Shown here: one piece after another, positions 34,934 to 45,509 of the stretch
How the letters are laid out: each line of letters starts with the position of its first letter
Position numbering within the stretch: the first letter of the stretch is position 1
Origin: an uncultured Actinomycetes bacterium
GTDB lineage: Bacteria; Chloroflexota; Dormibacteria; Aeolococcales; Aeolococcaceae
Direction of reading: 5' to 3'
NCBI GenBank assembly: GCA_964508345.1
Contig: CAZDTK010000009.1
Span: 14,489-78,488 of the forward strand
DNA length: 64,000 nucleotides
Notes under the pieces: generated by a model
Database searches by the model: none
The model's input: the letters and a program-made list of their open reading frames with translations, nothing else
Told to the model about the DNA's origin: nothing
Made by a program: the position numbers and the translations under genes

Positions 34934-35643
34934 CACGCGGAGGGCGGCGCGACCGAGCGGTAGTCGGTGTGCCCGTCGAAGATGCCGCGGCGCGACGGGG
35001 GGAGGACCGCGGCAATGCGCTGCATCAGCAGGTCGGCGGCGTCCTGGTTGGTGAGGCGCGCCCCCTGCGGGCTCTCGTCGGGGAGGGGGGCCGCATCGCC
35101 GAAGTGCAGGTGAGCAGGTGCCCGGCGCGGCCATTTCGCGCCCAGCGGGAGGACGCGCTCGGTCCCCCAGAGGGCCACGGGCAGGATGGGCACGCCGGCC
35201 ATCCGGGCCAGGAATCCGGCCCCGGGGTGGGGACGCTGGAGCCGCCCGTCCGGGCTGCGGTGGCCCTCGGGGTAGACGAGCACGGCGTGGCCCTGACCGA
35301 TGAGGTCGAGCACCTGGCGCAGGGCGGCGCGATCGGGCGTCCCGCGGACCACGGGGAAGGCGTGGTAGCCGACGATGAAGAAGCGCCCGACGGCGGTGCG
35401 GAAATAGTCGCTCTTGGCCATGAAGTAGAGATCCCGGCGCGGGAAGTAGGCGCCGGTGAAGGGCGGGTCGACGGTGCCCGCGTGATTGCTGACCACCAGC
35501 AGGCCGCCGCTGCGAGGAACGTTCTCGACCCCGCTGACGTCGATGAGGCCCCCGACCACGAGCCGGGAGAGCCCCCGGATCACCGTCGTCATCCAGCGGT
35601 AGTTGACGTCGCGGCCGGAGGGCGCGGCGTGGGGGCGGGTCAC
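34933..35643 (-). CDS. plsC: 1-acyl-sn-glycerol-3-phosphate acyltransferase
   Basis: 'VVSNHAGTVDPPF' (the HxxxxD-type acyltransferase box, NHxxxD here) and 'VLVYPEGHRSPDG' (EGTR-like box). Confidence 0.85.
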   Translation of the reverse strand: MTRPHAAPSGRDVNYRWMTTVIRGLSRLVVGGLIDVSGVENVPRSGGLLVVSNHAGTVDPPFTGAYFPRRDLYFMAKSDYFRTAVGRFFIVGYHAFPVVRGTPDRAALRQVLDLIGQGHAVLVYPEGHRSPDGRLQRPHPGAGFLARMAGVPILPVALWGTERVLPLGAKWPRRAPAHLHFGDAAPLPDESPQGARLTNQDAADLLMQRIAAVLPPSRRGIFDGHTDYRSVAPPSA

Positions 35644-36323
35644 CCGGGACGCCCCGGCGCACCCAGCCCGGCTGCCGCGCAGTGCGAGAGGGCGAGGTCG
35701 ACCATCTCGTCGATGCCGTGCAGGCCAGTGTCGATGATCACGGCACCGGGCGCCGCCGCGAGGGCGGGGGCGTCCACCTGGTCACGCCGAACGATGGAGG
35801 AGTGCAGCGTGTCGGCGTCGATCGCCGACCCCTGGCTTTCGAGCTGAGCCGCGCGCCGCGCGGCCCGAAGAGATGCCGCAGCGTCGAGATAGAGTTTGAC
35901 CGCCGCATCGGGGAAGACCACGGTGCCGCAGTCGCGCCCGACCGCCACACCTCCACCGGCGGCCGGCGCCCTCTGCAAGGGAAGCAGGAGCAGCCGGACG
36001 TTGGACATCCGGCCGATGGCCGTGAGGAGCGCCGTGTGCCGAGGGTCGCGGATCTCGGATCCGGGATCCGCACCGTCGATGCGCACGTGCCAGCTGTCGT
36101 CGGAGGGGTCGGTGTTGACCTCGATGGAGAGATGCGCCGCAAGTCGGGCGATCTCGCCGACGTCGGCCTCGTCGAGCCCCGCCTTGACGGCGGCGGCCGT
36201 GACCGCACGGTAGAAGAGGCCGGTGTCGATGAACGGCAGACCCAGGGCCAGGGCCAGGCGCCGGCCCAGGGTCGATTTGCCGCTTCCCGCCGTGCCGTCA
36301 ACGGTCACCACGGGGACGCTCAC
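35640..36323 (-). CDS. cmk: cytidylate kinase
   Basis: 'VVTVDGTAGSGKSTLGRRLALALGLPFIDTGLFYRAV' P-loop and the CMP-binding region. Confidence 0.9.
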   Translation of the reverse strand: MSVPVVTVDGTAGSGKSTLGRRLALALGLPFIDTGLFYRAVTAAAVKAGLDEADVGEIARLAAHLSIEVNTDPSDDSWHVRIDGADPGSEIRDPRHTALLTAIGRMSNVRLLLLPLQRAPAAGGGVAVGRDCGTVVFPDAAVKLYLDAAASLRAARRAAQLESQGSAIDADTLHSSIVRRDQVDAPALAAAPGAVIIDTGLHGIDEMVDLALSHCAAAGLGAPGRPG

Positions 36324-38003: not shown

Positions 38004-38741
38004 TCAGCCGGCATCCGAGCGCACCCGGATGGGCCCGAAGGGCTCGGGTTGGTCGACCACGGCGCGGCCCCGCTTGAGCAGCTCGAGCAGAGCCAGGAAG
38101 CAGGCGACGGCCTCCAGGCGCGTGGTCACCTCGGCGAAGATCGTCTCGAAATCCACCGGACCCCGGCTGAGCAGCTCGAGCAGCCAGGTGGCCTTCTCCT
38201 CGACCGAGAACGTGACCATGCCGACGGGAAGGGGCGCTGCGTCCTGGAGGCGTTCGAGCACCTGGCGGAAGGCGGCGGCGAGCCGGTCGGGGGGAATGCG
38301 CAGCCGCTCGACCGGCAGGACCTCGGGGGCCACCAGGCCCAGGAAGCTGCGCTGCCCGGTCTCGGCCGGCTCCAGGAGAAGAGCCTCCATCGCCGCCCGG
38401 AAGAGGCGGTACTCGGCGAGACGGCGGCCCGCCTCCCCCTCCACGACCGGCTCCTCCTCCGGCTCCACGTCCGTCTCGGTGACGCGCGCCGCCTTCATCG
38501 AGAGCAGCCGCGCCAGCAGCCCGAGCGCCTCGGCGGCATCCCGCAGGTCCCCCTCCAGCTCGACCCCGGAGAGCTGGCGGCTCACCTGGGTGGTCACCAG
38601 CGCCACCGGAAGCTCGCGGAGGTCGACGTCGCCCCGCTGAGCGGCGAGCACCAGCTCCTCGAGGCTGCCACTGAACTCGCCCACCTCCACGGGGAAGCGC
38701 CGGGGTGCCACGGCGCGCCCACCCGCCTCGCTCTCGCTCAT
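38004..38741 (-). CDS. scpA: segregation and condensation protein A
   Basis: 'FPVEVGEFSGSLEELVLAAQRGDVDLRELPVALVTTQ...' is the ScpA N-terminus, with the C-terminal winged helix 'ETIFAEVTTRLEAVACFLALLELLK'. Confidence 0.85.
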   Translation of the reverse strand: MSESEAGGRAVAPRRFPVEVGEFSGSLEELVLAAQRGDVDLRELPVALVTTQVSRQLSGVELEGDLRDAAEALGLLARLLSMKAARVTETDVEPEEEPVVEGEAGRRLAEYRLFRAAMEALLLEPAETGQRSFLGLVAPEVLPVERLRIPPDRLAAAFRQVLERLQDAAPLPVGMVTFSVEEKATWLLELLSRGPVDFETIFAEVTTRLEAVACFLALLELLKRGRAVVDQPEPFGPIRVRSDAG

Positions 38742-39218
38742 GGCGGCCCATGGTACGTGGTCGGGAAGCGTCGGTCGCGGAAGCGCGGCCCGCCTCAACT
38801 GCTGTTGCCGGAGAGGCAACCGGCGTTCCCCGCAGCCGCCGAGTCAGGACTGGGCGAGCCGCTCGATTGGCCATGGTCCGCCCGCTGCACTGGCGGCAGC
38901 CGTCAGCCGCTCCGTCCTCCTCGTTGCGAAGGATTGGAGGTGGTGGGGCGCGACGGGGAATGCCGAGAGGGCGGTGGCAGCGGACCCTAGACCCGCGGGA
39001 ACCGCGGAGCCGACGGTCGCGCTGATGACCGGCCGGCATCCCAGCAGTCGTCACCGTCATCGGGCCGGCCCTGGTAATGTGCCCGGGCAGGGCGACGCGC
39101 CCGGCGGGGATGGCGTGAAGATCACGTCCGCGTCGTCGCCAGCCAATGCCGGGCCGGCGCGTGCCCAGGAACACCAGCCGACGGACGGACCAGCGCACAG
39201 GAGGGGCAAGCCAAGGTC

Positions 39219-39821
39219 GTGGCGATAGGCTCCTGCCGGCTCGTGGGGCTGGATGGAACGCACGGCGTGGGCAAGACCTCCGCCGCTCTCGCACTCACAT
39301 CGAAGCTCCAAGCCAGAGGATTCGTGGCGAGGTGCGTGCCCGAGGTGGTGCGGACCAGCCCCTACTTCGACCAAGGCACGCTGCGGTGGCCCGGGCCGGC
39401 CGGCGAGCTGGACGTCTTCGGGGAGCAGATAGCCGCCGAGCAGCGGGCAGCCATTGGCTGTGAGGTACTCATCTGCGACCGCACCGTGCTCAGCGCGATC
39501 GCCTACTGGCAGGCACGGGTGACGCGCGGGCGAAACTCGGAGACGGCACTGCTGCGCGCCGCGGTGGCGTTCGCCCGGGCTTATGCTCGCCTCTACGACC
39601 TGTTCTTCCTCATGAACGTGCCCCTCTCGGGCGCGCCGGCCGACGACGGCTTTCGCGTGAGGGACCCCGCCTTCCAGGCGCAGATGGCCAACCGGATGCG
39701 CAGTCTGTGCCAGAAGCTCGACGTCGCCGCCGAACCCCTGCCGCTCGCCGAGTCCCCGGACGCGACTGCGGATCGAATGATCCTGCGCATCGATCAGGCT
39801 GGATGGCGGCCCGACCACTGA
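39219..39821 (+). CDS. P-loop NTPase / nucleotide-kinase-like protein (island gene)
   Basis: Walker A 'GLDGTHGVGKTSAALAL', a Walker B-like 'VLICDRTVL', ~200 aa. GTG start preceded by AGGAGGGG. Codon usage is noticeably lower in GC3 (ATA, AGA, CAA, ACA, GGA) than neighbouring core genes. Confidence 0.7.
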   Translation: MAIGSCRLVGLDGTHGVGKTSAALALTSKLQARGFVARCVPEVVRTSPYFDQGTLRWPGPAGELDVFGEQIAAEQRAAIGCEVLICDRTVLSAIAYWQARVTRGRNSETALLRAAVAFARAYARLYDLFFLMNVPLSGAPADDGFRVRDPAFQAQMANRMRSLCQKLDVAAEPLPLAESPDATADRMILRIDQAGWRPDH

Positions 39822-39929
39822 CGCCATGGGGACTTCGCCGATCGATGCTCCGACGCCGGGGGCAGAGCGCTCCTGTCGATCCGGGGTGTCGGTAGTGGGG
39901 TTGTTTGAGACGCGCCCAGGTCGACAGTA

Positions 39930-40025
39930 GGCGGCCCGCAACCCCTACCCGCGGACCCCGGCGATGGCCGCCGGCGTGGCCGACCACGTCTGGCGGATCG
40001 AGGAGATCGTCGGACTGCTAGCGTA
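39930..40025 (+). pseudogene. transposase C-terminal remnant
   Basis: A short frame opening just after a TAG encodes 'AARNPYPRTPAMAAGVADHVWRIEEIVGLLA*'. The '...MAAG.TDHVW..EE..' tail is a recurrent C-terminal motif of DDE transposase fragments. There is no N-terminal part. Confidence 0.3.
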
Positions 40026-40031
40026 GGGGCC

Positions 40032-40235
40032 GTGGCTCAAGCCTCTAAGTTCCGGCGAATCAGGCGCGAATGGTTTGATGCTGGTTGCCCACCTTGCGAG
40101 CACAAGTACACCGACAAGGAGCACGAGCTGGGCGCCCAGACGGGTGACCGGGGCTGCCTTGGGTGCGGCGATACTTGGTGGGCCGATGGTCCCGCGCCCC
40201 AGCCGTGGCGAGGCGGCGATCCCCCTCCGATCTGA
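40032..40235 (+). CDS. possible small zinc-ribbon ORF (island)
   Basis: 67 aa with 'CPPC' ... 'CLGC' (CxxC-x17-CxxC). GTG start with AGGGG 6 nt upstream; low-GC3 codons consistent with the island. Weak evidence. Confidence 0.25.
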   Translation: MAQASKFRRIRREWFDAGCPPCEHKYTDKEHELGAQTGDRGCLGCGDTWWADGPAPQPWRGGDPPPI

Positions 40236-40414
40236 TCCTCTTCTGAAACTGACCCACTACCGGGGTGTCGGTCGCCTGGACGAGCGCCGACTCGCCCTGA
40301 TATGCTCGCGCCGCGATGGCTCGGCGACAACGCCAATCGACAGGCTCCCTGTTCACCATCGCGCCGCCCGCCTTCACCGACGTCCGCCCGGCGGCCGGGC
40401 TCGGAGATTGACAG

Positions 40415-40960
40415 GTGTCAGGGCCCCTGACCTCCTCCCAGATTCGCAAGAGGATTGACGATTCTGGACTTGTGCGGCAGGCCGACGCGCGCTCCTTCGC
40501 GCCGGCCAGCTACGAGATGCGCGTCGGCAGCTACTACAGCCCGGCGGAAGGGGAGCCCATCTCGCTGGTTGCCGGAGACGGGGTGGCGCTGGCGCCCGGC
40601 GGTTTCGTGCTCATCGGCACCCTGGAGGAGGTGTCTCTTCCACGCGACATCCTGGGCATGATGTATCTGCGATCCACCTATGCGCGACGTGGGTTCTCCG
40701 ATTGGTTTCAGGGCCTGGTCGACCCCGGCTACCGCGGGGCCCTGACGGTCGCACTCCACAACCTGACGGATCACCCGCTGGTCATCCTGGGTGGTGATCG
40801 CATCTGTCACCTTCTCTTCTACCCGCTCGACGAGATGACGGACGAGTACGACGGCCGGTACCAGGGGTCCACGGCCGCCACCCCTGACGCCTATGGGGAT
40901 CGGGAAGTGAGCTCGTTCCCGATCGTGGGAGCTCCGCGGCAGAGTGTGGGCCCCCCATGA
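40415..40960 (+). CDS. dCTP deaminase-family protein (dUTPase-fold, Dcd-like)
   Basis: 181 aa; 'MYLRSTYARRGFS...LVDPGYRGALTVALHNLTDHPLVILGGDRICHLLFYPLDE' aligns with the Dcd catalytic Ser / Asp-Pro-Gly region and the C-terminal beta-strand. Confidence 0.8.
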   Translation: MSGPLTSSQIRKRIDDSGLVRQADARSFAPASYEMRVGSYYSPAEGEPISLVAGDGVALAPGGFVLIGTLEEVSLPRDILGMMYLRSTYARRGFSDWFQGLVDPGYRGALTVALHNLTDHPLVILGGDRICHLLFYPLDEMTDEYDGRYQGSTAATPDAYGDREVSSFPIVGAPRQSVGPP

Positions 40961-41567
40961 CGGTGCCCCACGATGGCCACGCGCTGCCGAGCGCGCAACG
41001 CCGGTGAGGGGGCTGCCCTCCGCCGCCGCGGGTGGCCGCCGGCGGCCCGACAAGCAGACATACAACCTCCTGCTTGCCGTCGCGGCACGAAGTCGTGCCG
41101 ATTGTCTGGACCGGCGGGTCGGAGCGATCATCACTCGGGATGATCGCGTGCTGAGCACGGGCTACACGGGCACGCCCTTCGGCATGCCCAACTGCTCTCA
41201 GGGCGGGTGCGCCCGCTGCGCTGCGGGGCCGCTGGACGGCGCCCCGCTCACGGGGGGCTACGACGTCTGCCTGTGTGTGCATGCCGAGCAGAACGCGATA
41301 CTTCACGCCAGCCGCTTCGGACAGCAAACGCTGGGCGCGTCGATGACATCGACGCTGCAACCGTGCTTCGGGTGCCTGAAGGAGATGCTGCAGGCAGGGA
41401 TCGAGGAGGTGCGCTTCCTCCATTACCGCCGCACGGGAGATGCCTACGACGACCGGGAGCTAGAGGTTCAATACCTCGCCCTGCAGAGTCGCTTTCGCGT
41501 ATTTGACCAGGTCGGCGACGAGAGCGCCGATTCGGAGGATCTCTTCGCCAGCTTCACCGGGAGTTGA
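40944..41567 (+). CDS. dCMP/cytidine deaminase, zinc-binding (CDA fold)
   Basis: 'VGAIITRDDRVLSTGYTG...' and the zinc ligands 'CVHAEQNAI' and 'PCFGC' (H(A/C)E ... PCxxC). Overlaps the dcd-like ORF by 17 nt. The start is perhaps GTG ~41004, because the first ~20 codons of the ORF-track ORF are Arg-rich. Confidence 0.8.
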   Translation: MWAPHDGAPRWPRAAERATPVRGLPSAAAGGRRRPDKQTYNLLLAVAARSRADCLDRRVGAIITRDDRVLSTGYTGTPFGMPNCSQGGCARCAAGPLDGAPLTGGYDVCLCVHAEQNAILHASRFGQQTLGASMTSTLQPCFGCLKEMLQAGIEEVRFLHYRRTGDAYDDRELEVQYLALQSRFRVFDQVGDESADSEDLFASFTGS

Positions 41568-41621
41568 TCCTGCAGGATGGACGCCCGCTGACTTGTCATC
41601 GAAGGCCTGAGGAGGCTTGCC

Positions 41622-42611
41622 GTGTCCGATGGGAGGATGCTCGCCGGGAGCACGCTTGCGACGGTTCTGAAGAGCGGTCGTGTTTTCCATCCCGACACCG
41701 TTGCCGACGGGAACATCGGTGCCGTCTCCTACGATCTCCGCCTCGCTGCCGAGCACACCTTCGTGACCGGCGATCCCAAGCCTGAGCCCGGCGGAGGGAT
41801 ATTCCTGAAGCCGGGGGAGAGCGCCTTCGTGTGCACCATGGAGCGCGCGCAGTTCGCCTGGGACGTTGCGGGGATCATCAGCGCGCCCTTCAGTCTGTCA
41901 TCCCGAGGGCTGCTCATCCTTCACGGACAGGTCGTCGATCCGGGCTATGGCCTGCGTCTGATCAACGGGGGGTGGGTGCCCTGCGAGGACACTCGACTCC
42001 ACCTGGTGTTCGCCAATGTCGGAGGCCGTGAGGTGACCCTCGCGCCGGGAGAGACGGTGGCGTCTCTGCAGCTGTTCGACGTCGAGGCGTTGCCGCCGGC
42101 CCAGCGACGCGAGATCGTGGCACCGACCCCAGGGCGGCCACTGGCGTTCTTCAGTCAGGCAGGTGTGGTCCTGCAGTCCGCGACGCGCACGCTGCGCAGG
42201 GCAGAGAGGCAGCAGGTGCAGATTGACAAGGCGGTGGCTCGGGTGACGACGGTGGAGAGAGGCTCCAGCTTCGTTGTCACGTTCGGGGTGTTCTTGGTGA
42301 CCGTGACGCTGCTCGGCGTCGTGCTGACGCTTCTGCTGCAGACCATGATCAACTTCCCGAAGCATCCTCCGCTGGATCTGGTGGTCACGGCGATCGTCGG
42401 CGGCGCGGTGGTTGCCCTGGGCACCCTCGCCGCGGTGGCGATCGGCCTGATGCACCTTGCCCGGATGAGCGCGGAGCCTCAGTTCCGGGCGACGTCCTCC
42501 GACGCCTCGGCGCCCGGCGAAACCGGGGAACCCGGGTCGCCACCGATCGCCAGCGACACGGCGCGGTCCCCGTCCGGTCCCGACGTTCCCGGGCGCCCGA
42601 CCCTCCCCTAG
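41622..42611 (+). CDS. Dcd/dUTPase-fold domain protein with C-terminal coiled-coil and two transmembrane helices
   Basis: The N-terminal ~170 aa 'AVSYDLRLAAEH...GIISAPFSLSSRGLLILHGQVVDPGYGLRL...LVFANVGGREVTLAPGETVASLQLF' repeat the Dcd motif order. Then comes 'TRTLRRAERQQVQIDKAVARV', then the hydrophobic helices 'VVTFGVFLVTVTLLGVVLTLLL' and 'LVVTAIVGGAVVALGTLAAVAIGLM', then a Pro/Ser-rich tail. The TAG stop lies inside the IS target duplication. Confidence 0.75.
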   Translation: MSDGRMLAGSTLATVLKSGRVFHPDTVADGNIGAVSYDLRLAAEHTFVTGDPKPEPGGGIFLKPGESAFVCTMERAQFAWDVAGIISAPFSLSSRGLLILHGQVVDPGYGLRLINGGWVPCEDTRLHLVFANVGGREVTLAPGETVASLQLFDVEALPPAQRREIVAPTPGRPLAFFSQAGVVLQSATRTLRRAERQQVQIDKAVARVTTVERGSSFVVTFGVFLVTVTLLGVVLTLLLQTMINFPKHPPLDLVVTAIVGGAVVALGTLAAVAIGLMHLARMSAEPQFRATSSDASAPGETGEPGSPPIASDTARSPSGPDVPGRPTLP

Positions 42612-42612: not shown

Positions 42613-43733
42613 ATGCACGGCTTTCGAGATGTAGAGACACCTGGGGGGCTTCCCCAGACATAGAGAAGCGACCCATCCTCGGGGTGTTCAAGGTCCTGAG
42701 GAGGGTCGCCCGTGACCAATGATGACCTGCTCTACCGGCACCGGGTCAAGTTGTTCGCGCGGGCACGAGAGGTGGGGGTGACACAGGCCTGCCGGGAGTT
42801 TGGGTACCACCGCTCCAGCTACTACCGGCTGCGCCACCAGGTGCTGCGCCAGGGGCTGGAGATGCTCCGCCCCCGGGAGCGCCGCCGGCCGCGGATGCCC
42901 AACTAGGTGCCGCCCTGGCTGGAGGAGCGAGTGGTCGCTTTCGCCCTGGGTCACCCCGGCCTGGGCCCGCGCCGGATCGCGGCCCAGCTGAGGCAGCCGA
43001 TGTGGGGCGGCCTGGTGATCTCGCCGAGCGGCGTCTACAGCGTCCTCGGCCGCCACGGCTTGCGCACCCGTGGAGCCCGGCTCTCCCTGGTGGCGGGGTA
43101 TGCCGCCCCACACGAGCCACAGCCGCCGCCCCGGCTCGCTCCCGGCCATCTGGAAGCCAGCGTGCCGGGGGAGCTCGTCCAACTCGATTGTTTCCACATC
43201 GGCCGGCTCACCGGCACCAAGGGCCGGGTCTGGCAGCACACCGCCATCGACGTGGCTAGCTCCTTCACCTGGGCGGAGATCCACGTGACCCCGCTCAACC
43301 CCGCCGCCCGCCACACCTCGGCCCTGGTGCGCCGGGTGGCCGCTGAGCTGGCCGCCGCGGGCTGGAAGCTGCAGGCCGTCTCCACCGACAACGGCTCGGA
43401 GTTCCGCTCCCAAGAGTTCCGCCGGGCGGTGCAGGCCACCGGCGCCCAGCAGCGCTTCATCCGCGCCGGCCGGCCCCAGACCAACGGCTGCGTGGAGCGA
43501 GTCCAGCGGACCATCCTTGAGGAGTGCTGGCGACCCAGCTTCGCCCGCTCTCTGGTGCCCAAGGTGACGGCCCTGCAGCGCGACCTGGTCAAGTACCTCG
43601 CCTACTACAACTTCGAGCGCGCCCACACCGGCCTGCGCACCGGTGGCCTGACCCCCGCAGCTCTGGTCTACGGTGCTAGAAAGATGAGGCCCCGGTGAGC
43701 CGCTTCTGTCGCCTCATCTTGGAATCCGTGCAC
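42613..43733 (+). mobile_element. IS481-family insertion sequence (~1.1 kb) with imperfect terminal inverted repeats
   Basis: IRL 'ATGCACGGCTTTCGAGATG' (42613-) matches the reverse complement of IRR 'GTGCACGGATTCCAAGATG' (-43733), 15/19 nt. The internal transposase has the IS481-type N-terminal HTH ('LFARAREVGVTQACREFGYHRSSYYR') and an rve DDE core. Confidence 0.75.
42712..43698 (+). pseudogene. IS481-family transposase interrupted by an in-frame TAG (codon 65)
   Basis: ORF 42712..42906 (HTH) and ORF 42907..43698 (DDE core 'LDCFHIG...TDNGSEF...' with the D, D, E region) are in the same frame, separated only by TAG at 42904-42906 ('CGG ATG CCC AAC TAG GTG CCG CCC'). Confidence 0.6.
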
Positions 43734-43796: not shown

Positions 43797-45509
43797 TCAC
43801 CCCGCCTCCTGGCGCTCCGGCGCGCTCGCGCCTCCCTCGTGGAGCAGCTCGGTCGCCCGCGCCAGCGCGGCCTCGGTGGTGCGTCCCGACATCATCCGGG
43901 CGACCTCGGTGACGCGCTCCTCACCGGCGACGCGGCGCACCTCGCTGCTCACCGCTCCCTCGCGCTCGGTGCGCGCGACCAGCAGATGCCAGGCGGCGCG
44001 TGCAGCGATCTCGGGCCGGTGAGTGACCGCGATGACCTGGCGGGAACGGCCGATCGCGGCGAGCAGATCGCCGACCCGCGCGGCGGTCTCGCCGCCGATT
44101 CCGGTGTCCACCTCGTCGAGCACGAGCAGCGGCTGGCCACCTGATCCCCCGGCCGCGGCCAGGGCCAGCGCCAGGCGGCTGAGCTCGCCCCCCGAGGGCC
44201 CCTCGTCGAGCGGGAGCGGGACGCCGCCGCGATTGGCGGCGAGACGCATCTCCACCTGATCGACCCCGTCGGCGTCGCAGCGGAGCGGTCCGTCGCCGAG
44301 ATCGACCCCGTCCGGGTCGGCGGCGACGCCGAGGGTCACCCGGAAGCGGGCGTCGGGGAGCTCGAGCATGGCGAGGTTCCGCTCCACGGCGCGCTCCAGG
44401 GCATGAGCCGCCTCGCGCCTCGCGGCGCTCAGCTGCGTCGCCGCCTCGGCGGACCCGAGCTGGGCGTTCCGGGCCTCCGCCTCCAGGGCGGCGACGTCCA
44501 GGCCGCCGCGGGCGGCGTCGCAGATCCGGCGGGCGGCCTCCAGGCTCGAGAGGGCGGCCCTGAGGGACCCGTGACGCCGCTTGACCCGGGCCAGGGCGTC
44601 GAGGCGCTCCTCCACCGCCTCCAGGCGGCCGGGGTCCACCTCGACGCGGTCGGCGAGGCGGTGGGCGGTGATCCCCAGCTCGCGCAGGGCGACGGCGAGG
44701 GAGGACGCCTCGGTGCCCAGATCGGCGAGCGCCGGATCGACGCCGCTCAGAGCTTCGACGTCGACGAGGGCCCGCTCCAGGGCATCGGCGGCACCCGCCT
44801 CGTCACCGCTCGCGGCGTCGGCGAGCTGGATGGCGGCGCGGGCGATGCCGGCGGCGTGGCGCAGGCGCAGCCGCTCGGCGCCCAGCTCGTCCTCCTCACC
44901 CTCGCGCAGGCGGAGCGGCTCCAGCTCGGCGATGGTCGCCTCCGCCTCGGCAAGCTCCGCGGCGGTCCTGCGGCTGGCGACACGGGCGGCGCCAAGCCCC
45001 GTCTCTGCGATCCGCCAGCGCCGGTGGGCGCCGGCCATCGTGGTGCGAGCGTCGGTGACCGCGGCTCCTCCGGAGTCGTCCAGAGCGCGGCGCTGCCAGC
45101 TTCGCTGGAGCATCCGGTGGCTGGCACCCTGAGCGGTCACGTCGGCGAGCTGGTCGCCCAGCTCGCGGAGGGTCGCCTGCGAGACCAGGGCGCCGTTGAC
45201 CCGGCACGTCGAGCGCCCGCTGCTGCCGGCCTCGCGCGTGAGCGTGACCAGGTCGTCGATCGGGATGCCGAGGCTGGCGAGCAGAGCGGCGCTCTCCGGG
45301 CTCGGCTCGAAGACGGCCCGCACCGAGGTCCTCTCCCCCACGGCCTCGCCCTCGGCACGCGCTCCCAGCGCCCAGCGGATGGCCGCGATGCAGAGCGACT
45401 TGCCCGCCCCGGTCTCGCCGCTCAGCGCGCCGAACCCCGCGTCACAGTCGAGGCGCGCGTCGCGGGCGAGGGCGAAGTTGCGCAGGCGGAGCTCGAGCAG
45501 ACGGCTCAC
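43797..45509 (-). CDS. recN: DNA repair protein RecN
   Basis: 570 aa; N-terminal Walker A 'LSGETGAGKSLCIAAI', a long coiled coil, and C-terminal 'LLVLDEVDTGIGGETA' (Walker B) / signature. Confidence 0.9.
   Translation of the reverse strand: MSRLLELRLRNFALARDARLDCDAGFGALSGETGAGKSLCIAAIRWALGARAEGEAVGERTSVRAVFEPSPESAALLASLGIPIDDLVTLTREAGSSGRSTCRVNGALVSQATLRELGDQLADVTAQGASHRMLQRSWQRRALDDSGGAAVTDARTTMAGAHRRWRIAETGLGAARVASRRTAAELAEAEATIAELEPLRLREGEEDELGAERLRLRHAAGIARAAIQLADAASGDEAGAADALERALVDVEALSGVDPALADLGTEASSLAVALRELGITAHRLADRVEVDPGRLEAVEERLDALARVKRRHGSLRAALSSLEAARRICDAARGGLDVAALEAEARNAQLGSAEAATQLSAARREAAHALERAVERNLAMLELPDARFRVTLGVAADPDGVDLGDGPLRCDADGVDQVEMRLAANRGGVPLPLDEGPSGGELSRLALALAAAGGSGGQPLLVLDEVDTGIGGETAARVGDLLAAIGRSRQVIAVTHRPEIAARAAWHLLVARTEREGAVSSEVRRVAGEERVTEVARMMSGRTTEAALARATELLHEGGASAPERQEAG

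Follow-up and report, generated by a model that had tools for sequence, protein, structure and literature searches.

Contig CAZDTK010000009.1 of an uncultured Actinomycetes bacterium carries an island of about 5 kb between two minus-strand genes, scpA (38004-38819) and recN (43797-45509; TIGR00634, E 1.4e-101). In this island four open reading frames (ORFs) on the plus strand, here named g1 to g4, are accompanied by an IS481-family transposase gene. The window is the whole stretch of 64,000 nucleotides (nt) that was analysed, and positions refer to it unless another locus is named. A stand-alone P-loop kinase is encoded by g1, a soluble protein of the Dcd fold by g2, a zinc dCMP deaminase by g3, and a Dcd-fold protein with two transmembrane (TM) helices by g4, whose family is called DcdTM below. 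A sequence-only reading of the same DNA had proposed these four genes as a nucleotide-depletion anti-phage system; all four ORFs exist where it had placed them, each above the Pfam gathering score of the family claimed for it.

The gene g4 (41622-42611, plus strand; Pfam DCD, E 3e-8) encodes a protein of 329 amino acids (aa). Its Dcd-fold domain covers about residues 10-160 (41649-42101, plus strand), as delimited by the AlphaFold2 (AF2) model, alignments with E. coli Dcd and family column statistics. A long helix then follows at residues 175-243 (42144-42350, plus strand; DSSP on the AF2 model), possibly a coiled coil to judge by the model, and it runs into the first TM segment (TM1, residues 221-239, 42282-42338, plus strand), which was recognised by hydropathy and carries the FGVFL motif starting at F221-G222. 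The second helix, residues 251-284, includes TM2 (residues 258-276, 42393-42449, plus strand; hydropathy), and the tail was disordered. The mean predicted local distance difference test score (pLDDT) of the model was 79, with values above 90 in the domain, and Foldseek comparison with the structures of M. tuberculosis Dcd, E. coli Dcd and Thermococcus pacificus dUTPase gave template modelling scores (TMt) of 0.74-0.81; for Dcd structures as a whole the range was 0.62-0.81, and for canonical Dcd with the bifunctional Dcd-dUTPases it was 0.62-0.75.

The fold of canonical Dcd and of the bifunctional Dcd-dUTPases (E. coli, M. tuberculosis, M. jannaschii) is common to g2 and g4, and the (V/I)DPG(Y/W)xG motif and the equivalent of Asn141 were kept in the island proteins, whereas Glu138 had no equivalent in either. 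In g4 the motif reads VDPGYG, Phe occupies the position of E. coli Ser111 and Val that of Glu138, and a family-specific insert ends in R125-L-H127. Compared with canonical Dcd, g4 is also without Arg115, Arg126 and the C-terminal lid, and the loop insert, the long helix and the two TM helices have been added. With TIGR02274, the equivalog of canonical Dcd, it scored 27.1 bits against a cut-off of 92.8. The sequence-only reading had described g4 as a second Dcd-type deaminase tethered to the membrane by two TM helices; the architecture was right, while the replacement of Ser111 by Phe and of Glu138 by Val speaks against the deaminase. A role of g2 and g4 as dCTP deaminases was rejected on these catalytic positions.

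Relatives of g4 were numerous: a word-indexed search returned 14, and an exhaustive profile search returned 3261 at E <= 1e-3. At E <= 1e-30 the family had at least 269 cluster representatives (50% identity), nearly all of about 300 aa, and two TM segments were present in 133 of 150 representatives. DcdTM was defined as a protein of about 300 aa whose N-terminal Dcd fold contains VDPGYG but has Phe in place of Ser111 and a hydrophobic side chain in place of Glu138, followed by a long helix, by TM1 with FGVFL and by TM2. Every family-defining feature was present in g4, which scored 316 bits with the family profile.

Column statistics over 149 DcdTM representatives showed that the Glu138 position was hydrophobic in most and that Ser111 was changed to Phe in 120. 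Other parts of the pocket were retained: 142 representatives had a basic residue at R110, 116 had Asp128 and 147 had the aromatic residue that stacks on the sugar. New conserved residues, R125 and H/Y127, came from the insert and lie on the active-site strand. Conservation in TM1 equalled that of the Dcd core (mean top-residue fraction 0.53 versus 0.50), with G222 at 0.99 and F221 at 0.92. The count of Lys plus Arg was 3.2 after TM2 versus 1.4 in the loop, which fits a predicted in-out-in topology. DcdTM proteins are now annotated as 'dCTP deaminase', which the catalytic residues contradict. No description of the family was met in PADLOC or in the literature searched, and it is apparently undescribed.

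The neighbourhoods of DcdTM were compared at about 25 loci of public metagenomes and metagenome-assembled genomes (MAGs), numbered here with the prefix L. A pattern scan with a narrow TM1 pattern, drawn from a 7-sequence alignment, found 3 loci in genomes and 12 in metagenomes, which are lower bounds. Across the roughly 25 loci DcdTM was the constant member and the enzymes varied. The commonest neighbour was a ThyA-like protein, present at 13 loci and often overlapping by 4 nt. A five-gene cassette of HAD phosphatase, DcdTM, Ham1, ThyA-like protein and AAA_17 kinase was found at 7 loci, and other sets consisted of HAD or NT5C with the ThyA-like protein, or of NUDIX and HAD with the ThyA-like protein. 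DcdTM was accompanied by a dCMP deaminase in the window and in L005, whose deaminase is 51% identical to g3, by an AAA_28 protein in the window and in L006/7 (there with a radical SAM protein), by a convergent AAA_33 kinase at 4 loci, and by a soluble Dcd-like gene in the window and in L015; at some loci only a kinase or another Dcd-like partner was seen. Judged by their sequences, most loci would combine DcdTM with an enzyme altering the cytosine of (d)CMP, usually together with a kinase and a phosphatase or pyrophosphatase.

The ThyA-like partners had the catalytic Cys and the phosphate-binding Arg residues in all 11 full-length sequences, and in the same 11 an Asp stood at the position of thymidylate synthase Asn177, as does Asp179 in T4 dCMP hydroxymethylase. 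In the T4 enzyme Asp179 switches the specificity from uracil to cytosine. The partners scored far below the thymidylate synthase cut-offs. In addition, the ThyA-like proteins of L002, L004, L009, L012, L016-L019 and L021-L024 had Ser, Gln or His at the position of E. coli ThyA Asp169, which we take to be a folate-binding residue, and ThyA-like partners carried a C-terminal extension of about 80 aa; in cofactor use these partners may depart from thymidylate synthase.

The kinases of the cassettes belonged to unrelated P-loop families that have Walker A alone in common, a non-orthologous displacement which argues that the kinase function was selected. The exact four-gene set of the window was not found beyond one near-clonal population, so the block which had been put forward as a unit was not seen to recur; what recurs is g4 with varied (d)CMP-modifying partners.

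The third gene, g3 (40944-41567, plus strand; 207 aa), encodes a zinc dCMP deaminase, with a match to Pfam dCMP_cyt_deam_1 over residues 36-158 (E 8.4e-17; 61.4 bits, cut-off 25) and with both catalytic motifs, H113-A-E115 and P-C141-F-G-C144, intact. The PHROGs family phrog_174 'dCMP deaminase' was matched at E 3.7e-33, and the matches in PDB were the T4 enzyme Cd (1vq2, the best), S. mutans 2hvv, cyanophage 4p9c and human DCTD, while the score with the ComEB equivalog was 64.5 bits against a cut-off of 219. Translation could start at GTG 40944, which gives 207 aa and a 17-nt overlap with g2, or at GTG 41004, which gives 187 aa without overlap and is the call in other assemblies. Of the zinc deaminase overlapping its neighbour by 17 nt, as first described, the deaminase was thus upheld and the overlap depends on the start codon. 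The 139-aa start used by JGI was rejected, since it cuts into the deaminase domain that begins at residue 36 of the 207-aa ORF.

Published models of anti-phage dCTP deaminases also met g3. The PADLOC model 'dCTPase' (PDLC02373) matched its core at E 4.6e-20, and NF041025 matched it at E 4.8e-16 with 58.7 bits versus a cut-off of 400, the best match lying at positions 338-386 of the 437 positions of the model. Neither PDLC02373 nor NF041025, kinase part included, matched g1 at E <= 0.01, and the PADLOC dCTPase and NF041025 models did not match g2 or g4. The comparison made earlier, in which the defensive dCTP deaminases were taken as Dcd-type relatives of g2 and g4, was therefore inverted, the published models matching g3 instead.

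The soluble protein g2 (40415-40960, plus strand; 181 aa) matched Pfam DCD at E 3.4e-23 and Pfam dUTPase at E 2.7e-8. With TIGR02274 it reached 88.0 bits, under the cut-off of 92.8. Ala was found at the position of E. coli Dcd Glu138, Ser111 and motif II (RST..AR) were kept, and the Gln of motif IV was replaced by His. A tight subfamily was formed by 31 homologues, none of which had Glu138, with motif II kept as RS(S/T)xAR and the motif IV His conserved. The closest PDB sequences were 9ln0 (E 3e-19), which is P. furiosus P45, and 8y1w (E 1.8e-18), the T. pacificus enzyme; both are dUTPases though their sequences are annotated as 'dCTP deaminase'. These archaeal Dcd-like dUTPases are, like g2, without the deaminase Glu and with RS(S/T)xAR, but their motif IV keeps Gln (R-x-x-Q) where the g2 family reads RICH, with His instead, and the g2 family has a second specific His (LHN) that they do not share. 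A C-terminal extension of 40 aa, present in most homologues, was absent from the g2 of the window. Identity to phage proteins was at most 34%. Since Ala stands at Glu138 and the closest solved relatives are dUTPases, g2 is not a canonical deaminase; it kept the Dcd fold claimed for it and lost the label of Dcd-type dCTP deaminase. Most likely it is a putative dUTPase-type pyrophosphatase of deoxynucleoside triphosphates (dNTPs), and 'dUTPase' is used as a working label. The extra deaminases claimed for g2 and g4 thereby fell away, as neither has Glu138, and g3 is the one demonstrably intact deaminase of the island.

Elsewhere, close homologues of g2 (about 50% identity) were paired with a dNK-family deoxynucleoside kinase and adjoined a NACHT/nSTAND3 protein (L031, 204-4591), and another g2-like gene lay in Tn7-like cargo with TniQ, two M78 peptidases and an HD protein (L029, 1-12600). 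A soluble Dcd-like protein and a kinase may form a separate two-gene module.

The first gene, g1 (39219-39821, plus strand; 200 aa; Pfam AAA_28, E 1.3e-13), bore out the description as a stand-alone P-loop nucleotide-kinase-like protein. It contains the Walker A motif GTHGVGKTS, followed by DRT. Weak thymidylate-kinase signals came from Pfam (Thymidylate_kin), NCBIfam and PHROGs (phrog_2107 'thymidylate kinase', E 1.1e-8), no match was obtained against PDB sequences, and the AF2 model, built from three sequences and of low confidence (pLDDT 61), had thymidylate kinases as its best matches, with a template modelling score of about 0.5. A thymidylate-kinase-like P-loop kinase is suggested, for which the structural match is indicative at most.

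Between g1 and g2 an insert of 373 bp (39890-40262) is bounded by an imperfect 21-nt inverted repeat (39890-39910 and 40242-40262, 81% complementary). It contains a transposase-like C-terminal tail at 39936-40026 (...TPAMAAGVADHVWRIEEIVGLLA*) and an ORF of 67 aa with a CxxC..CxxC arrangement at 40032-40235, which gave no coding signal in the GC content of the third codon position (GC3; GC1/2/3 0.68/0.62/0.69). NCBIfam and tblastn gave no family assignment for the tail, which we presume, as an unconfirmed lead, to be like the C-terminus of an insertion sequence (IS) transposase. No second copy of the insert was found elsewhere in the window, and by its sequence features it is probably the remnant of an IS or of a miniature inverted-repeat transposable element. 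PADLOC gave no match for g1, g2, g4 or the 67-aa ORF, and the gene combination matches none of the described defence systems, in agreement with the earlier remark that it was not known as one.

The composition of the island differs from that of its surroundings. The GC content of the window is 0.72, and it drops from 0.72-0.78 to 0.63-0.70 over 39.7-42.7 kb; GC3 was 0.78-0.85 in g1-g4 versus 0.90-0.92 in scpA and recN. Codons ending in A or T made up 17.9% in the island versus 8.0% in seven flanking genes (Fisher p = 2e-15), and ATA was counted 4 times versus 0, CAA 5 versus 2, TCT 4 versus 2 and AGA 2 versus 1, so that the lower GC3 and the rare codons ATA, AGA, CAA and TCT noticed at first sight were borne out by GC and GC3 windows and by codon counts. 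An identical or near-identical island (0-1 single-nucleotide polymorphism in 5 kb) was present on at least 7 contigs from several metagenome samples, and therefore it is not an assembly artefact. The island is horizontally acquired and compositionally foreign.

At its left edge lies a non-coding leader (38820-39218) without frame-specific GC3 signal. An Rfam scan of the island and leader gave no match, and folding of the g1 leader gave an ordinary structure (z = -0.97). The right edge is formed by the IS481-family transposase gene (42712-43698, plus strand; HTH_28 and rve; NF033577, E 1.3e-46), in which an in-frame TAG at 42904-42906 separates a 64-aa helix-turn-helix (HTH) part from a 263-aa rve part of the same frame; as the sequence stands, the gene is likely a pseudogene or dependent on read-through. 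The JGI contig carrying the island stops within this element. Horizontal acquisition had been argued from a transposase remnant and an IS481 element, and of these two the IS481 element was confirmed by NF033577, while the remnant at 39936-40026 could be given no family.

Signs of mobility and conflict were also met around DcdTM elsewhere. The GC3 of the cassette was below that of the flanks at several loci. In L012 (7950-10873) the DcdTM gene was split by an insertion of about 1.9 kb with transposase-like ORFs, an IS1634 element adjoined the cassette in L006, a TrwC relaxase in L015, and the cassette of L005 lay between toxin-antitoxin genes (ParE and MazE modules). The downstream Ham1-like gene of L012 also looks frameshifted, which gives the picture of a decaying five-gene cassette in an Actinomycetes MAG. 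In L004 (1-10990) a complete Hma system lay directly upstream of the ThyA-like-DcdTM pair on one strand (HmaA 2e-194, HmaB 1e-129, HmaC 6e-115), and in L002 (314-10849) an HmaB-like methylase and an SNF2 helicase took the same position as the Hma genes of L004. A system of the restriction-modification type may be functionally coupled to the cytosine-modifying cassette there.

Viral and plasmid collections gave a different result. A tblastn search with g4 found no match in 50,697 phage genomes and none in 72,556 plasmids, a pattern scan of IMG/VR found no relatives, and the matches of g4 among the viral structures of BFVD covered the Dcd domain alone, without the full architecture. The suggestion of a prophage-derived cassette thus received no support as far as a recent origin is concerned. 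When other DcdTM members were used against plasmids, weak matches to ordinary dcd genes and one Acuticoccus protein were returned. The latter is a 231-aa 'deoxycytidine triphosphate deaminase' on plasmid NZ_CP133481.1 of Acuticoccus sp. MNP-M23 (L041, 5167-10843), weakly DcdTM-like and of uncertain membership. Its neighbours include HTH, ImmA/IrrE and C1 peptidase genes, as well as a pair of uracil-DNA glycosylase and MazG, which resembles a combination listed by DefensePredictor as a predicted defence system.

The island is read here as a deoxycytidylate-targeting conflict module, with an anti-phage use as the probable purpose, and we give this reading a probability of roughly 0.4. The analysis shows which domains the proteins have, which catalytic residues they keep or lack, how the genes are associated, and that the island is accessory or foreign; from this we infer the reactions, the direction in which nucleotides would flow, the task of g4 and a use in defence as follows. 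Once switched on, the island would remove deoxycytidine nucleotides from the canonical pool: g2 would turn pyrimidine dNTPs into deoxynucleoside monophosphates (dNMPs), g3 would turn dCMP into dUMP, g1 would re-phosphorylate pyrimidine dNMPs, and g4 would be a deoxynucleotide-binding control or effector subunit at the membrane instead of a deaminase. The contexts of Hma, toxin-antitoxin genes, relaxase and IS elements make a part in genetic conflict plausible. The DcdTM cassettes as a whole make a coherent candidate system, apparently undescribed, and they may amount to a new anti-virus system.

Several points weigh against this reading. Simple depletion needs no kinase, and a dUTPase-type g2 would oppose the accumulation of dU. 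The g2 of the window is C-terminally shorter than its homologues and is split from g1 by an inserted element, therefore the set may be partly decayed. Among roughly 10 loci with usable flanks just 2 adjoin a recognised defence system, and in the window no known defence gene adjoins the island, which is flanked by core genes and an IS. DcdTM was also found next to the cytidylate kinase gene cmk, or within a few genes of it, in three settings that differ in cassette type and lineage, namely in the window (cmk 35640-36323), in L003 (10001-12682), L013 and L014, and in the 43%-GC locus L020 (1740-4096). This proximity looks too frequent for chance and may reflect a metabolic link to the phosphorylation of CMP and dCMP, in place of a conflict role or in addition to it. 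In Solirubrobacterales MAGs of at least 2 species, DcdTM with the AAA_33 kinase occupied a conserved site between aroA and cmk, which fits a resident metabolic role.

Apart from its position, the cmk gene beside DcdTM was unusually long in the Solirubrobacterales loci, with 331-362 aa in L003 (11687-12682), L013 (8007-9095) and L014 (9447-10529) versus 227 aa in the window. The GC3 of cmk in L013 and L014 was 0.77, near that of the DcdTM/AAA_33 pair (0.72-0.80). The long cmk may carry an extra domain or have been acquired in one block with that pair.

It is possible, though doubtful, that during infection the partner enzymes (the dCMP deaminase and kinase in the island, the ThyA-like protein and kinase elsewhere) yield a pyrimidine deoxynucleotide with a modified base, for instance dUTP or 5-modified dCTP, and that g4 senses it, opens or perturbs the membrane and aborts the infection. 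The Dcd fold is an obligate trimer in relatives of g4, and by analogy three times two TM helices would be brought together. The loss from g4 of the deaminase residues and of part of the triphosphate-binding set, with the deoxyribose-recognition residues kept, would suit a sensor, and g2, Ham1 or NUDIX would hold background levels of the signal down. The conservation of TM1 at the level of the core, with its near-invariant FG, is unusual for a mere anchor, a constant DcdTM among varying enzymes agrees with a common responder, and Kongming offers a precedent. However, the nucleotide made would differ from partner to partner, whereas the pocket residues change little across the family; several cassettes contain phosphatases (HAD, NT5C), which fit degradation better; and R125 and H127 could equally mean catalysis. 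The narrower proposal about the protein itself, that DcdTM is a trimeric deoxynucleotide-gated effector with catalysis lost, whose helical stalk would lead into a six-helix bundle and collapse the membrane potential, we regard as slightly more doubtful again.

An unlikely explanation is that DcdTM and its partners do housekeeping without any part in conflict, sanitising or balancing the dC and dU nucleotides in support of cytidylate kinase and of the dcd and dut genes of the host. The cmk settings and the aroA-cmk site of different Solirubrobacterales MAGs described above are what it accounts for best, and Ham1, NUDIX, HAD and NT5C are classic house-cleaning enzymes. It sits badly with the apparently patchy spread of the family (3 loci in the pattern-limited scan of 185,579 species genomes), with the foreign composition and the IS elements in and around the cassettes, with the cassettes found on a relaxase-bearing element or beside Hma, and with ThyA-like partners that have the cytosine-type Asp and fall far below the thymidylate synthase cut-offs.

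The uracil DNA of PBS2-type phages, which relies on conversion of dC to dU and on a dUMP kinase, is a precedent for the window, and the T4 pathway to hydroxymethyl-deoxycytidine (hm-dC) is one for the ThyA-like cassettes. The island could accordingly be a stranded toolkit of a mobile element or prophage, replacing the canonical pyrimidine in the DNA of that element, which we hold to be quite improbable. The phage families phrog_2107 for g1, phrog_1663 for g2 (6.5e-34) and phrog_174 for g3 did outscore the cellular equivalogs, the five-gene cassette with its NTP pyrophosphatase, Asp-type ThyA-like protein and NMP kinase mirrors the hm-dCTP pathway of T4, and L015 adjoins a relaxase. Set against these are the empty searches with g4 in phage genomes, plasmids and IMG/VR, the restriction of the viral structure matches to the Dcd domain, the low identity of g2 to phage proteins, and a neighbourhood of the island free of phage structural and replication genes.

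Very improbable, finally, is a split form of the known defensive dCTP deaminase, to which g2 and g4 would add further Dcd-type dCTP deaminases, making three activities that deplete dCTP: g2 and g4 do have the Dcd fold, g3 does match anti-phage models and a kinase gene is present, but the replacement of Glu138 in g2 and g4 and of Ser111 in g4 is conserved in both families, the closest characterised relatives of g2 are dUTPases, the known defensive enzyme has the zinc deaminase fold and not that of Dcd, g1 is unlike its kinase domain, and g3 remains far under the NF041025 cut-off. For the last two reasons the island was also rejected as a split copy of that enzyme.

With the anti-phage dCTP deaminase (Tal et al. 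2022 type) and AvcD, the deoxycytidylate-targeting module proposed here would share a logic, the genetic coupling of a zinc deoxycytidine-nucleotide deaminase of the cytidine deaminase fold to a P-loop kinase-like protein. The arrangement is different. The anti-phage enzyme has its kinase-like domain at the N-terminus of one polypeptide, whereas g1 and g3 are separate genes 1.1 kb apart, and g3 looks like an ordinary phage-like dCMP deaminase, unlike the full anti-phage dCTP deaminase. Neither that enzyme nor AvcD has a counterpart of the two Dcd-fold genes and the membrane protein. AvcID consists of a fused P-loop NTPase and deaminase (AvcD) and the AvcI small RNA, whereas the island has separate genes and gave no Rfam match, a result that would allow an unrelated small RNA.

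In Kongming, a deaminase and a dNMP kinase make dITP, and KomB, of a pyrophosphatase family and complexed with the SIR2 protein KomC, joins the response (10.1101/2024.12.20.629578, PMC13454610). The likeness is one of logic alone, a base-modified dNTP made by a deaminase and a dNMP kinase and a responder from an NTP-pyrophosphatase family. Kongming works on purines (dAMP to dITP), with a kinase supplied by the phage and a SIR2 NADase as effector, whereas the island would use pyrimidine chemistry, a self-encoded kinase and a membrane-bound putative effector; the Pfam scans of g1-g4 listed no adenosine deaminase and no SIR2 domain.

DS-4 of DefensePredictor is a validated E. coli defence system with a thymidylate synthase (TS)-like protein, a dNMP kinase, a 5-hmdU DNA kinase-like protein, a TIR protein and NMAD (PMC13092281), and this defence operon of a TS-like enzyme, a nucleotide kinase and an effector resembles the DcdTM cassettes in its make-up. 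Its TS-like protein and the DcdTM-linked ThyA-like proteins are distant homologues (22-28% identity, E down to 3e-17), with the uracil-type Asn in DS-4 and Asp in the others. The effector of DS-4 is the TIR protein and not a Dcd-TM protein, and the kinases are unrelated. The window itself is without a TS-like or TIR gene, so the homologue occurs in the related loci only.

Known nucleotide-targeting defences act either by depletion of dNTPs, as the dCTP deaminase/AvcD and dGTPase do, or by a modified-nucleotide signal, as in Kongming. Whatever the function of the island, the g2-type and g4-type gene families both receive a corrected annotation. If g4 were indeed a gated effector, it would be a new effector class and, after Kongming, the second case of base-modified nucleotides as immune signals. 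If the module is defensive, it would be a third design beside depletion and signalling, in which a membrane-anchored Dcd-fold protein is combined with interchangeable enzymes that deaminate or C5-modify deoxycytidylate.

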